In this document: positions 2,892 through 6,508 of the stretch, piece after piece
Position numbering within the stretch: the stretch's first letter is position 1
Layout: each line of letters starts with the position of its first letter
IMG/VR virus record: IMGVR_UViG_3300045988_087472
Span: 1-31,536 of that record
DNA: 31,536 nt
Origin: a virus
Taxonomy: Duplodnaviria; Heunggongvirae; Uroviricota; Caudoviricetes
Strand: one strand, 5' to 3'
Position numbers and translations under genes: made by a program
The notes under the pieces: model-generated
What the model was told of the DNA's origin: nothing
What the model saw: only the letters and a program-made list of their open reading frames with translations
The model's database searches: none

Positions 2892-3518
2892 TTAGAGTTC
2901 GTATTGAACTCCTTTGACTACACCAATGATAAGGCAATTACCATTGATAGGGATGTTGGGATACCGAGGATTTAATGGCACTAAAAACTTTTGAGGGCCA
3001 TCGATGACTAATTTTTTTACTGTAGCTTCGTTTGTTCCATCAAGTCGAGCGATGACTATTTTTCCATGACGAGGTTCTGCATCTGGATCTACAATCACTG
3101 TTGCGCCTTCTGGTATTGTTGGGAGGCCATTAGGGTTAGTCATGGAGTCACCTTTAACCTCTAATGCAAATGAGTTATCACCAATCTTTAATGATGTATC
3201 TACCCACTTGTCCACTTCACTAAACACTTCTGCTGCCCTGCACTCAGTAAACTGCCCAGCCTGAACCCACGATATTACAGGAACTCTGCGCATGTTTGTG
3301 ACGAGTTTGCCTTCAAACTCAGCACCATAAAGAATGTAATCTATTGACGTATTGAAGAACTTCGCTAATTTCGAAAGTGCCTCCCCACCAGGGGTATTGA
3401 TGTCTTTCTCCCAGTACCCCACAGCAACGTCGCTTACTCCACAAAATTTACCCAATTCTTTCTGGGACGTTCCGGTAACTCTTCTCAGAGCTTTTATACG
3501 CTGACCAACCGTTTCCAT
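2892..3518 (-). CDS. CI-type prophage repressor, XRE-HTH N-terminal domain plus S24 (LexA-like) autopeptidase domain (208 aa)
   Basis: N-terminal HTH (QKELGKFCGVSDVAVGYWE); C-terminal VKGDSM serine motif and downstream VKKLV lysine of the S24 Ser-Lys dyad; divergent from a Cro-like gene. Confidence 0.9.
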   Translation of the reverse strand: METVGQRIKALRRVTGTSQKELGKFCGVSDVAVGYWEKDINTPGGEALSKLAKFFNTSIDYILYGAEFEGKLVTNMRRVPVISWVQAGQFTECRAAEVFSEVDKWVDTSLKIGDNSFALEVKGDSMTNPNGLPTIPEGATVIVDPDAEPRHGKIVIARLDGTNEATVKKLVIDGPQKFLVPLNPRYPNIPINGNCLIIGVVKGVQYEL

Positions 3519-3615
3519 AGGAGCACCATTTCTTGAATTGCTAAGTAATCTTAGTTTTTATTGACCAAAGATAGATTTGTAATTAGCATCTAATAAAACT
3601 TAGTTTGGAGGGCGT
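3519..3615. promoter_or_regulatory. Divergent cI/cro intergenic region with candidate operators and rightward promoter
   Basis: Palindrome CTAAGTAATCTTAG at 3541-3554; CTTAGTT at 3550-3556 and 3599-3605; -35-like TTGACC at 3561-3566 with weak -10 TAGCAT at 3584-3589. Confidence 0.5.
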
Positions 3616-3816
3616 ATGACAACTGACGATATCGAAAGCTACTTCGGCAGTATTGAGAAAGTTGCTGCTTTTTTCGGCATAACAACTGAAGCCGTTTATC
3701 AGTGGCGAAACCGTCCGGGCCAGTTAATTCCAAAAGGACGTGCAGCAGAAGCTGCATATAGAACTTGCGGACGGTTGCCATTTAAACCTGAGCTTTATGA
3801 AAAATCTAATGGATAA
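3616..3816 (+). CDS. Cro-like HTH transcriptional regulator (66 aa)
   Basis: Divergent to the repressor; HTH segment FFGITTEAVYQWRNRPGQLIP; SD GGAGGG upstream. Confidence 0.8.
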   Translation: MTTDDIESYFGSIEKVAAFFGITTEAVYQWRNRPGQLIPKGRAAEAAYRTCGRLPFKPELYEKSNG

Positions 3817-4405
3817 ATCGATTAACAGAAACCACAGAACGATGAGGCTAACCGTGGGTAAGCATCACTGGAAAGTAGAAAAACAGCCTGAGTGGTACGT
3901 GAAAGCTGTCAGAAAAACTATCGCAGCGTTGCCGGGTGGTTACGCTGAAGCAGCTGACTGGCTGGATGTAACAGAAAACGCATTATTTAACCGCCTTCGT
4001 GCCGATGGCGATCAGATTTTCCCGCTGGGATGGGCAATGATTTTGCAACGTGCTGGTGGAACTCACTTCATTGCTGACGCTGTGGCGCAGTCTGCAAATG
4101 GCGTCTTTGTGTCTCTTCCTGACGTCGAGGATGTGGACAACGCCGATATTAACCAGCGCCTGCTGGAAGTCATTGAACAGATTGGCAGTTATTCCAGACA
4201 GATTCGTTCGGCAATCGAAGACGGTGTGGTGGAACCGCATGAGAAGACAGCAATTAACGACGAGCTGTATCTCTCAATTTCGAAGCTGCAGGAGCATGCA
4301 GCACTGGTCTACAAAATCTTTTGCATTTCAGAAAGTAATGACGCCCGCGAGTGTGCAGCTCCGGGCGCCGTGGCGTGTCGTGACTGTGGAGAAACTAACG
4401 CATGA
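3797..4405 (+). CDS. CII-like phage regulatory protein (CP76-type; about 202 aa)
   Basis: Position right after cro; pattern resembles phage 186 CII family as recalled; track ORF starts at GTG 3740 inside cro, so the ATG at 3797 is preferred but the start is uncertain. Confidence 0.5.
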
Positions 4406-4740
4406 ACAGTTTAACAACACACTACCGTCGCTCGCAACTGATTGCGCTTCCTGTACCGGGTGGAAAAGCGAAGGTGGAGTATTGCTATGCAGTTAATGTA
4501 CCAGGTGACAGGGAAATTGTAACCCACAGCTTTGCTGAGTGGGCTGTGGGTGATTTCAACCGGCAGAAGGAGACAGTCCTTTGCGACAAGTTAACCGCTG
4601 GTTCAAAGATCACTACGGAGTGCCCGTCAGAGTCATTCGTTGGGAGCCGGAAACACAACGAGTTATCTACCTCCGCGAAGGCTATGAGCATGAGTGCTTC
4701 AGCCCGCTCGAACAGTTTCGTCGTAAATTCAGGGAAATAG
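4402..4740 (+). CDS. Hypothetical protein (112 aa); frame assignment uncertain
   Basis: ATG overlaps the upstream stop (ATGA coupling); the C-terminal third is low-complexity while an alternative frame from 4581 looks more protein-like. Confidence 0.35.
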
Positions 4741-4749
4741 AGGTCGGTC

Positions 4750-5691
4750 ATGAGCACTAAATTAACCGGCTATGTATGGGATGGTTGCGCTGCATCAGGC
4801 ATGAAATTATCCAGCGTGGCAATTATGGCCCGCCTGGCTGATTTCAGTAATGACGAAGGTGTGTGCTGGCCATCAATTGAAACTATTGCCCGTCAGATTG
4901 GCGCGGGGATGAGTACCGTCAGGACGGCTATCGCACGGCTGGAAGCAGAAGGCTGGTTAACGCGTAAGGCGCGTCGCCAGGGTAACCGCAATGCGTCGAA
5001 TGTTTATCAGCTTAACGTTGCGAAGCTTCAGGCAGCGGCATTTTCTCAACTGTCAGATTCTGACCCGTCAAAATCTGACGCATCAAAATCTGACCCGTCA
5101 AAATTTGATGCGTCGAAATCTGGCAAAAAAGCGGGTTTTCACCCGTCAGAATCTGGCGGGGATCCGTCAGTAAAATCAAAACATGATCCGTCAGATAAAA
5201 AACCTTCTCGTCCGGACGCTTCGCAACCGGACACGCAGACGGATGAACAGGATTTTTTAACTCGCCATCCTGATGCGGTTGTATTCAGCCCTAAAAAGCG
5301 CCAGTGGGGAACGCAGGATGATTTGACCTGCGCACAGTGGCTCTGGAAAAAAATCATCGCCCTGTACGAGCAAGCCGCCGAATGTGACGGCGAGGTGGTT
5401 CGTCCCAAAGAACCGAACTGGACAGCCTGGGCAAACGAAATTCGCCTGATGTGTGTGCAGGATGGTCGTACTCACAAACAAATCTGCGAGATGTACAGCC
5501 GCGTCAGCCGCGATCCGTTCTGGTGCCGTAACGTGCTCAGCCCGTCGAAGTTGCGGGAAAAATGGGATGAGCTTTCCCTGCGCTTATCGCCGTCCGTCAG
5601 CACGCACACAGAAAAACGCGAAGACCCGTACTTCAAAGCCAGTTACGACAATGTGGACTACAGCCAGATCCCGGCGGGATTCAGGGGGTGA
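4750..5691 (+). CDS. Phage replication initiation protein, O-like (N-terminal HTH domain, repeat-encoded linker, DnaT-like C-terminal region; 313 aa)
   Basis: N-terminal winged-helix segment CWPSIETIARQIGAGMSTVRTAIARLEAEGWL; internal DNA repeats; position after cII-like gene. Confidence 0.75.
   Translation: MSTKLTGYVWDGCAASGMKLSSVAIMARLADFSNDEGVCWPSIETIARQIGAGMSTVRTAIARLEAEGWLTRKARRQGNRNASNVYQLNVAKLQAAAFSQLSDSDPSKSDASKSDPSKFDASKSGKKAGFHPSESGGDPSVKSKHDPSDKKPSRPDASQPDTQTDEQDFLTRHPDAVVFSPKKRQWGTQDDLTCAQWLWKKIIALYEQAAECDGEVVRPKEPNWTAWANEIRLMCVQDGRTHKQICEMYSRVSRDPFWCRNVLSPSKLREKWDELSLRLSPSVSTHTEKREDPYFKASYDNVDYSQIPAGFRG
5053..5204. repeat. Iteron-like tandem 15-bp repeats (consensus TCARAATCTGACNCG, 5 tandem units at 5053-5127 plus degenerate copies to about 5200) followed by an A-rich tract; candidate phage replication origin inside the initiator gene
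   Basis: Repeats read directly; encode SDPSK/SDASK pentapeptide repeats in-frame. Confidence 0.5.
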
Positions 5692-5693
5692 TC

Positions 5694-6182
5694 ATGAGTC
5701 TTTTGAATGACGTTCAGAAATTCATTGAAGCCCATCCGGGCTGTTCTTCCGGAGACATTGCGGATGCTTTTGCAGGTTACTCACGGCAGCGCGTTCTGCA
5801 GTCAGCAAGCAAGTTACGTCAGAGTGGGCGTGTGGCTCACCGTTGTGAAGGAGATACACGCAGACATTTCCCGCGCCTGACTGAGAGAGCGCAGGAGCCG
5901 GAACCACAACCAGTTCGTGAAACCAGACCTGTGCGCAATTTCTATGTCGGCACTAACGATCCCCGGGTGATTTTGTGCCTGACCCGCCAGGCTGAAGAAC
6001 TGGAGTCCAGGGGCTTATACCGTCGTGCTGCAACGGTGTGGATGGCGGCATTCCGTGAAAGCCACTCCCAGCCAGAACGAAACAATTTTCTGGCGCGTCG
6101 TGAGCAGTGCTTACAGAAAAGCAGCAAGCGCGCTGCATCGGGTGAAGAGTGGTATCTGTCAGGGAATTACGTGGGGGCGTAA
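5694..6182 (+). CDS. PerC-family transcriptional regulator-like protein (162 aa from the ATG)
   Basis: C-terminal motif LYRRAATVWMAAF...FLARREQCL resembles the PerC family signature as recalled; track start 5688 is GTG, ATG at 5694 has a G-rich SD. Confidence 0.55.
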   Translation: MSLLNDVQKFIEAHPGCSSGDIADAFAGYSRQRVLQSASKLRQSGRVAHRCEGDTRRHFPRLTERAQEPEPQPVRETRPVRNFYVGTNDPRVILCLTRQAEELESRGLYRRAATVWMAAFRESHSQPERNNFLARREQCLQKSSKRAASGEEWYLSGNYVGA

Positions 6183-6508
6183 TGACGACGTTAACTCAAT
6201 GCCAGCATCAGGTGCTGGATATGCTGATTTCTTACCAGAAAGAGCGTGGCTTTCCGCCAACCAATCAGGAGGTGGCAACCATGCTGGGATACCGTTCAGT
6301 GAATGCAGCGGTAGAGCATCTTCGTGCACTGGAGAAAAAAGGCGTCATCACGATAAAGCGTGGCGTGGCCCGGGGGATCACGCTTCATACCACAGTGAAG
6401 GACGACGACAGCGAGGCAGCCGGGATTATCCGCGCACTGCTTGCCGGTGAGGAAAACGCCAGACTGCGTGCAGCCCACTGGTTACATGAGAGGGGCCTGA
6501 AAGTATGA
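6182..6508 (+). CDS. LexA N-terminal DNA-binding-domain homolog lacking the S24 peptidase domain (108 aa)
   Basis: MTTLTQCQHQVLDMLISYQKERGFPPTNQEVATMLGYRSVNAAVEHLRALEKKGVITIKRGVARGITL aligns by eye to the E. coli LexA N-terminus; no Ser-Lys dyad region; ATG overlaps upstream stop (TAATG). Confidence 0.65.
   Translation: MTTLTQCQHQVLDMLISYQKERGFPPTNQEVATMLGYRSVNAAVEHLRALEKKGVITIKRGVARGITLHTTVKDDDSEAAGIIRALLAGEENARLRAAHWLHERGLKV

Follow-up and report, generated by a model that had tools for sequence, protein, structure and literature searches.

A phage replication origin probably lies at positions 5053-5208 of IMG/VR virus record IMGVR_UViG_3300045988_087472, inside the gene of its own initiator, as ori-lambda lies in gene O. 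The record represents an SfII/SfIV-type lambdoid prophage, and its whole length of 31,536 nucleotides is called the window below. The candidate origin comprises six 11-bp dyad cores, followed by two GATC-bearing repeats and the least stable segment of the gene. The array of cores is constrained at the DNA level, and it is co-inherited with the winged-helix N-terminal domain of the initiator, not with the C-terminal domain. The repeats are very probably binding sites of this initiator. The evidence for an origin is comparative rather than experimental.

The initiator gene and its repeat array

The gene that holds the array (4750..5691, plus strand) encodes an O-like replication initiator of 313 amino acids, made up of a winged helix, a linker predicted to be disordered and a lambda O-type C-terminal domain. 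The protein matched PHROG 391 ('replication initiation O-like', E 1.4e-135) over its full length, and this match, together with the homology of the C-domain to lambda O, bears out the first-pass annotation of this DNA, in which the gene had been called O-like. The label 'primosomal protein I' found in some records was rejected, as a DnaT-like match was absent from all libraries searched.

The N-terminal winged-helix DNA-binding domain (amino acids 1-97; 4750..5040, plus strand) was recognized by Pfam HTH_36 (PF13730) at amino acids 23-70 (E 4e-11, 42.9 bits against a cut-off of 25). In the AlphaFold model the winged helix spans amino acids 1-98, with helices at 43-50 and 54-66 and a beta wing at 70-88; the family match and the model both agree with the earlier placement of the repeats after a winged helix. 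The best Foldseek matches of the domain were MarR/ArsR-type winged helix-turn-helix proteins, and these were weak (E of at least 2e-3) and indicated the generic winged-helix fold only. No Phage_rep_O match was obtained from Pfam at E <= 0.01, and no homology to the N-domain of lambda O was detected with hhalign (probability 0.1). The domain is the presumed reader of the iterons. The linker encoded by the array is predicted to be disordered, with a predicted local distance difference test score (pLDDT) below 50 and no secondary structure in the AlphaFold model over amino acids 102-163, the product of the array and its flank. The C-terminal domain (amino acids 175-277; 5272..5580, plus strand) aligned with amino acids 180-270 of lambda O (BLASTP, E 8e-26) and was modelled with a pLDDT of about 90. 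Only this direct BLASTP comparison with lambda O identified it; sequence searches of Pfam, NCBIfam and PDB had no match, in Pfam not even at E <= 10.

Tandem Repeats Finder reported a period of 15 bp at 5059-5122 (4.3 copies, 81% matches, score 86) and, for the same stretch, also a period of 30 bp (88%, score 100). The repeat search placed unit starts at 5053, 5068, 5083, 5098, and 5113 (span 5053-5127), with another copy 33 bp further. The informative part of the units is an 11-bp dyad core, TCARAWTCTGR, which is almost its own reverse complement, and most cores match this pattern on either strand. With at most one mismatch allowed, the core gave 15 strand-hits in the window, compared with 3.45 +/- 1.89 in 100 dinucleotide-preserving shuffles of the window, none of which reached 15. 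Eleven of these hits represent six sites within 5053-5156, and the remaining four are each mismatched; core matches at 2574, 2667, 14569, and 31367 were rejected as further sites, having one mismatch each and being at chance level. No second core cluster was found anywhere in the 31.5-kb window. The five tandem 15-bp units proposed earlier at 5053-5127 are thus borne out by both repeat searches and by the shuffles.

Iteron 1 (5053..5063, TCAGATTCTGA) forms with its flanks a perfect 13-bp palindrome, GTCAGATTCTGAC. Iterons 2 (5068..5078) and 3 (5083..5093) both read TCAAAATCTGA, iterons 4 (5098..5108, TCAAAATTTGA) and 5 (5113..5123, TCGAAATCTGG) each carry one core mismatch, and iteron 6 (5146..5156, TCAGAATCTGG) is the best-conserved unit, located 33, 48 or 63 bp past the array in relatives. 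No strand is assigned to the iterons or to the flanking elements described below, unless one is given. A seventh copy at 5176-5186, with two mismatches, overlaps the downstream GATC repeats and agrees with the degenerate copies that the first-pass annotation had followed to about 5200. The six cores occupy codons 102-136, between the stretches that encode the N-domain and the C-domain. Being in frame with the open reading frame (ORF) 4750-5691, the units encode SDSDP-SKSDA-SKSDP-SKFDA-SKSGK, the repetitive linker peptide that had been noted from the translation. An RNA element was rejected: an Rfam scan of 4400-6000 gave only mir-5880, a eukaryotic miRNA family, at 5051-5125, below threshold (30.7 bits against a cut-off of 97) and as an artefact of the palindromic repeats.

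The spacer between iterons 5 and 6 (5124..5145, CAAAAAAGCGGGTTTTCACCCG) contains an A6 run (5125-5130), 5 nt and a T4 run, and relatives keep this pattern of A-run, 5-6 nt and T-run between the last tandem unit and unit 6. An antisense terminator was considered at the same place (hairpin CGGGTGAAAACCCG with a T6 run, 5145-5132, minus strand) and rejected, since relatives keep only the A/T runs and not the stem. Two exact GATCCGTCAG repeats follow at 5161-5170 and 5185-5194, carrying two Dam GATC sites 24 bp apart. This spacing holds in 54 of 59 species loci, the pair is present with both iteron classes (A and B, defined below), and at least two GATC sites within 60 bp were found in 73 of 80 linkers compared with 49 of 320 background pieces. 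In the nearest-neighbour profile, the least stable 40-mer of the gene is an A-rich stretch at 5169..5208, which starts 13 bp past unit 6 and is the candidate unwinding element (dG, the free energy term, -47.0; 30% GC; within the top 2% least stable of the window). A second A6 run lies at 5198-5203. The A-rich tract of the first-pass annotation is therefore present, in the form of the A6 runs and the least stable 40-mer, but it is modest and weaker than that of lambda.

In many relatives (loci L082-L085, L089, L090, and L097), a gene for a Dam-type N6-adenine methyltransferase lies one or two genes 3' of the initiator gene, while the window and SfIV are without one (PMC3851460). These downstream methyltransferases may be connected to the conserved GATC pair.

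Constraint on the array and covariation with the N-domain

Relatives with graded N-domain protein identity from 88% to 59% (Klebsiella Kp4871-1, Citrobacter phiNP, E. coli LLS and 733R5, Yersinia YeP2, phiP27, and Klebsiella KpnBHU6) all keep the core at 15-bp spacing despite peptide differences (SKSDx, SESEx, PESGR, and others). Across 46 units from eight phages, information was high over a contiguous 11-bp block, third codon positions included (1.65, 1.38, and 1.65 bits), and fell to only 0.2-0.7 bits at positions 12-15, even though first and second codon positions are among them. Such a profile is that of a DNA motif rather than of codons. A species scan with one genome per species yielded 80 loci from about 70 Enterobacterales species, nearly all of which have 3-10 units spaced 15 bp apart and, beyond a gap of 33, 48 or 63 bp, a well-conserved last unit.

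Codon choice was examined for the two serine codons of the unit in 254 units from 69 species loci, picked on codon positions 1 and 2 only, which avoids circularity. The first was TCA in 94% and the second TCT in 86% of the units, compared with third bases A/C/G/T of 23/31/28/19% in the TCN codons of the N-domains of the same genes. Counted per locus, the majority third base was A in 69/69 for the first serine and T in 65/69 for the second. Synonymous sites of the N-domain are far from conserved (31-53% of codons identical at conserved residues). The residues encoded by the core swap radically (K/E/D, S/P, D/E/G) via single-base changes that leave the core intact. Two copies of the unit TTTGACCCTTCAGAWTCTGG lie 32 bp from each other in phiP27, and likewise in Citrobacter locus L170; one is translated as FDPSDSG and the other as VLTLQNLD, so that one DNA unit is read in two frames. 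Among 80 near-identical loci the spacers hold most single-nucleotide polymorphisms, and one locus has an extra unit. The first-pass annotation had proposed comparing relatives to see if conservation is stronger in the DNA repeat or in the peptide, and by the information profile, codon choice, the two-frame unit and the class covariation described next it is clearly stronger in the DNA. For annotation, the 'low-complexity linker' that the repeats encode in these proteins is a by-product of the DNA element.

A second class of N-domain (class B, VWEGCA...), 68% identical to that of the window (class A), was found in an E. coli contig, Erwinia, Mixta, and Edwardsiella. Its units follow YCAAYNRTTGA (TCAACnGTTGA or TCAATnATTGA), also at 15-bp spacing. 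The two classes share the outer TCA...TGA, and the two inner bases differ symmetrically in both half-sites. The 85 class-A loci had means of 5.3 A-type and 0.2 B-type sites, and the six class-B loci means of 0.2 A-type and 5.5 B-type sites; core type and N-domain class partition completely over the 91 loci. The A and B classes are a naturally occurring test case, and a clean one, for the way in which a winged helix alters its DNA specificity.

The C-domain does not travel with the array. The phages phiNP, LLS, YeP2, KpnBHU6, and phiP27 have the array in common and carry C-domains other than that of the window, and in protein P0038 the N-domain and the repeat peptide are both class B while the C-domain is of the window type. 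The mosaic junction between the module of N-domain plus origin and the C-domain module was placed at 5192..5228, as phiNP matches gene positions 2-479 only and mEp460_4F5 positions 443-942 only.

In more remote HTH_36 initiators (about 40% identity), the winged helix is followed directly by an array particular to each, of the dyad or the inverted-repeat type. The arrays are GGGCAGGAGCTGCCC in Min27 (three copies), GTGCAGGAGATTCAC in ST64B and mEp460 (4-5 copies), CTGTGCC...GCACAG in ZF40, AGTGACAAAATGTCAC in Vibrio D75, TATGCCATCTGATGGCA in Klebsiella RAH1 (spacings 23, 22, and 24 bp), and TGCAGGAAATGCA in Pseudomonas LESphi3 (spacing 17 bp). The spacings in RAH1 and LESphi3 put successive copies in differing reading frames.

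Some further variation touches the array. Just 3' of the arrays of distant HTH_36 loci L088-L094, from E. coli, Salmonella, Pectobacterium, Klebsiella, Vibrio, and Pseudomonas phages, there is a near-identical stretch, CCAGAACCAGTCACTCTTTTGAACCAGTCAAWGAACC, which encodes PRTSHSFEPVxEP and bears a likeness to the GATCCGTCAG pair of the window. Its rare AGA codon is invariant, and the stretch may thus be a second conserved DNA element of those origins. Three initiator variants of E. coli and Klebsiella (P0016, P0020, and P0063, of 287, 274, and 296 amino acids) have in-frame deletions of most of the array, and the gene is truncated at locus L152. Such array-deleted or truncated variants may mark origin-defective cryptic prophages.

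The origin interpretation and its alternatives

If positions 5053-5208 are the origin, the six dyad cores would be iterons occupied by dimers of the N-terminal winged-helix domain. The resulting multi-protein complex, aided by the A/T runs, would strain the low-stability segment 5161-5208, and this segment, with its two GATC-bearing repeats, would open. The lambda O-type C-domain would then recruit the host replicative helicase. We infer these steps, from binding by the N-domain and complex formation to the unwinding site and the route of helicase recruitment, together with any role of Dam and SeqA.

Searches with tblastn using lambda P, two P-like proteins, one DnaC-like and one DnaB-like protein gave no match in the 31.5-kb window, and the replication module and annotation of SfIV hold no P, DnaC or DnaB homologue. 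The helicase would therefore come from host DnaB-DnaC, directly or via an adaptor. In lambda O, the homologous C-domain binds P. The absence of P from the window raises the question of how a C-domain of this type engages the host helicase; one Rahnella relative, whose C-domain is of the same type, does have a lambda-P-like gene next door. The C-terminal tail of the initiator (5650-5688; DVDYSQIPAGFRG / DNVDYSQIPAGFRG) belongs to a pattern, VDYSxIPxGFR[GS], common to phiNP, LLS, ST64B, and mEp460 (loci L082, L083, L089, and L090), which have non-homologous C-domains and no adjacent P, DnaC or helicase gene. Relatives with a P-like gene next to the initiator (Rahnella L097 and Klebsiella RAH1) have the tail PHWNSPE[AG]W instead. 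The VDYSxIPxGFR[GS] tail may be a short docking motif for a host replication protein.

Several points weigh against an origin at this place. The half-site centres lie about 6 bp apart at a 15-bp pitch, which is tight for winged-helix dimers and a geometry unlike that of lambda, and the sites may instead be read in an alternative register across the unit junctions (TCTGAC-N2-3-GTCARA). The repeat is in frame in the window, and the window alone may thus leave room for a peptide-level role. Unit counts are inflated by gene conversion in the arrays; tallying by locus (69/69 and 65/69) lessens this effect, and shared ancestry remains. With 70% AT, compared with 77.5% in lambda, the AT-richness of the low-stability segment is only moderate. 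No helicase loader is encoded nearby, the next gene 3' being PerC-like. In the literature searches, no experimental binding or origin activity was found for this phage group. The window contains no perfect DnaA box, with one-mismatch matches at chance level, and no IHF consensus was found in it; to our knowledge, ori-lambda is likewise without either.

A more specific proposal, which we regard as tentative and rather doubtful, is that the element follows an origin design of its own. Here 11-bp dyad iterons at rigid 15-bp spacing would be read by a MarR-like winged helix, the unwinding element would be set by the conserved Dam GATC pair 24 bp apart, with firing coupled to methylation or SeqA, and the C-domain would load the host helicase without a phage P, DnaC or DnaB. 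If this were true, the TCAGAwTCTGA and TCAACnGTTGA classes would constitute an orthogonal initiator-origin pair.

It is unlikely that the repeats are genuine N-domain sites serving autoregulation, copy control (handcuffing) or the exclusion of related phages, with the origin elsewhere in the prophage. Sites bound for any purpose would fit the constraint on the DNA and the covariation, the AT-rich element is not a strong one, and ectopic ori-lambda copies are reported to inhibit related phages (PMC3349717, PMC4488673). However, the succession of iterons, A/T runs and least stable segment between the coding parts of the two domains is the mapped lambdoid layout, position for position. The motif clusters only here in the window, and the sites lie about 1.5 kb downstream of a pR-like promoter, a poor location for an operator. 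That another protein reads the repeats, either a host factor or a PerC-like or LexA-like phage neighbour, is quite improbable: core type switches exactly with the N-domain class of the initiator, and the array stays with the N-domain while the downstream genes vary (methylase, DnaC-like, P-like, PerC-like), even though binding of the repeats by the N-domain is predicted only and several small DNA-binding proteins are encoded nearby.

A linker at a module boundary, kept by homologous recombination among mosaic phages and without a binding function, would yield uniform identity and not an 11-bp periodic information profile with free spacers, and it leaves the symmetric, class-specific half-site change unexplained. 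The mosaic junction at 5192-5228, immediately 3' of the array, and the conservation of the GATCCGTCAG...CCTTCTTGTCCGG stretch over N-domain classes speak for such a linker, to which we give a very slight chance. The covariation result argues against both this explanation and another protein as the reader. The least probable alternative, and one strongly disfavoured, is a Ser/Asp/Lys low-complexity linker made by slippage and selected at the peptide level, with DNA similarity stemming from recent duplication. A 15-bp unit is indeed five codons, the peptide is repetitive and predicted to be disordered, and copy number varies as slippage predicts, but the frame and codon results argue against this view. 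Over about 70 species the choice of synonymous codon depends on the position in the unit, other synonymous sites being by no means conserved, charge-reversing K to E substitutions are tolerated, one unit stands in two frames in phiP27 and L170, and the arrays of distant relatives are out of frame; dyad symmetry, moreover, is meaningless for a peptide.

Prophage context and known systems

Upstream of the initiator gene, the window carries a cI-like S24 repressor gene (2892-3518, minus strand), a P22-Cro-like gene (3616-3816) and a CII/CP76-like gene. The pR-like site at 3561-3589, upstream of cro, is promoter-like by consensus match only, and all genes from this site up to 5691 share one orientation, a layout in which the candidate origin may lie within the pR transcript, as for transcriptional activation. 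An ORF of 112 amino acids (4402-4740, plus strand) belongs to PHROG 1170 and has no assigned function. A DUF4222 ORF of 59 amino acids (4581-4760, plus strand), identified by a family match, lies in another frame, overlaps the 3' end of the 112-amino-acid ORF and ends 11 bp within the initiator gene; since each has a family match, both may be real. The first gene 3' of the initiator gene is the PerC-like one. A further gene at 6149-6508 (plus strand) encodes a protein of 119 amino acids that matches Pfam LexA_DNA_bind (E 1e-18) and consists of the LexA DNA-binding domain alone, without the S24 peptidase domain. It could be an uncleavable LexA mimic encoded in the early right operon.

The initiator gene at 4750-5691 has 98-99% DNA identity to genes of the Shigella phages SfII and SfIV annotated 'replication protein O / primosomal protein', and several E. 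coli phages carry a gene of the same identity. It is the replication gene of these serotype-converting phages, and among 5426 complete E. coli genomes 1576 have it at close to full length; prophages from about 70 Enterobacterales species carry related arrays. The paper on the SfIV genome is silent about an origin (PMC3851460), and no mapped origin for SfII, SfIV, SfV or HTH_36 initiators was found in the literature searches. A defined origin with its cognate initiator would provide a handle for marker-frequency analysis of induction. It would help to tell active from origin-deleted prophages, of which deletion variants exist, and the origin/initiator pair could be a source of compatible replicons.

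Among known systems, the 'Eru' regions of non-lambda-type Shiga toxin (Stx) phages (Eru5, Eru6, and others) have HTH_36 proteins beside cI/cro, and their origins or repeats are not described (PMC8951638). They share with the window the N-domain family PF13730 and the location of the gene. The Eru5 representative Stx2a_F403 and Min27 gave an identical match to the window N-domain (42.9% identity, same record coordinates), and the Eru6 representative Stx2a_WGPS2 also matched it. In contrast to these likenesses, the Eru N-domains are only about 40% identical to that of the window, and the iteron sequences differ.

The predicted gene 18 origins of P22-like phages (P22, L) resemble the array in having lineage-specific short iterons in a distantly O-like lambdoid initiator gene (PMC8022706). 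Gene 18 of phage L has six copies of the 11-bp TGTCCAACGGA, a predicted origin inferred from the repeats, with the same unit length of 11 bp as in the window (PMC8022706). P22 and L differ in initiator N-domain and iteron sequence, and they have their own DnaB-type helicase, gp12, which the window lacks. In plasmid iteron origins and P1 oriR (RepA-type), too, winged-helix domains read initiator sites that form direct arrays. GATC-bearing repeats occur in the unwinding region of P1 oriR and of oriC. Plasmid iterons are usually 17-22 bp long and non-coding, and origins of the RepA, pi or RepE type combine them with DnaA boxes and an IHF site, whereas the window array is coding and was found with neither a DnaA box nor an IHF consensus.

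The closest comparison is with lambda and the Stx phages. Iterons have been demonstrated in the O genes of both, and Stx phages such as 933W have six (PMC7466680). The 'P27' Stx phage of that work has a lambda-type O and is distinct from phiP27 (NC_003356) used here. As in the lambda and Stx (933W) origins, an array of dyad sites lies in the initiator gene after the DNA-binding N-domain and is followed by a low-stability A-rich segment and then by the part coding for the C-domain (PMC7466680). The iterons have central A runs in all of these, and copy number varies among relatives, 4 versus 6 in lambda and Stx phages and 3 to 10 here. The lambda record annotates four iterons at O codons 117-145, in frames 0, 2, 2, and 1 and spaced 20, 24, and 23 bp, with the least stable 40-mer of gene O (22.5% GC) directly after iteron 4. 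The lambda-ori-like arrangement described in the first-pass annotation therefore holds for position, with the array at codons 102-136 here, and the C-domains are homologous, while homology between the N-domains was not detected. The window differs from lambda in its HTH_36 rather than Phage_rep_O N-domain, in 11-bp cores at strict 15-bp spacing instead of 18-19 bp at 20-24 bp, in repeats that are in frame where those of lambda occupy three frames, in a weaker AT-rich part with a conserved GATC pair, and in the lack of a P gene. Iterons inside an initiator gene are already textbook knowledge for lambda and Stx phages, and the array in this window is a new, well-supported candidate example of them.

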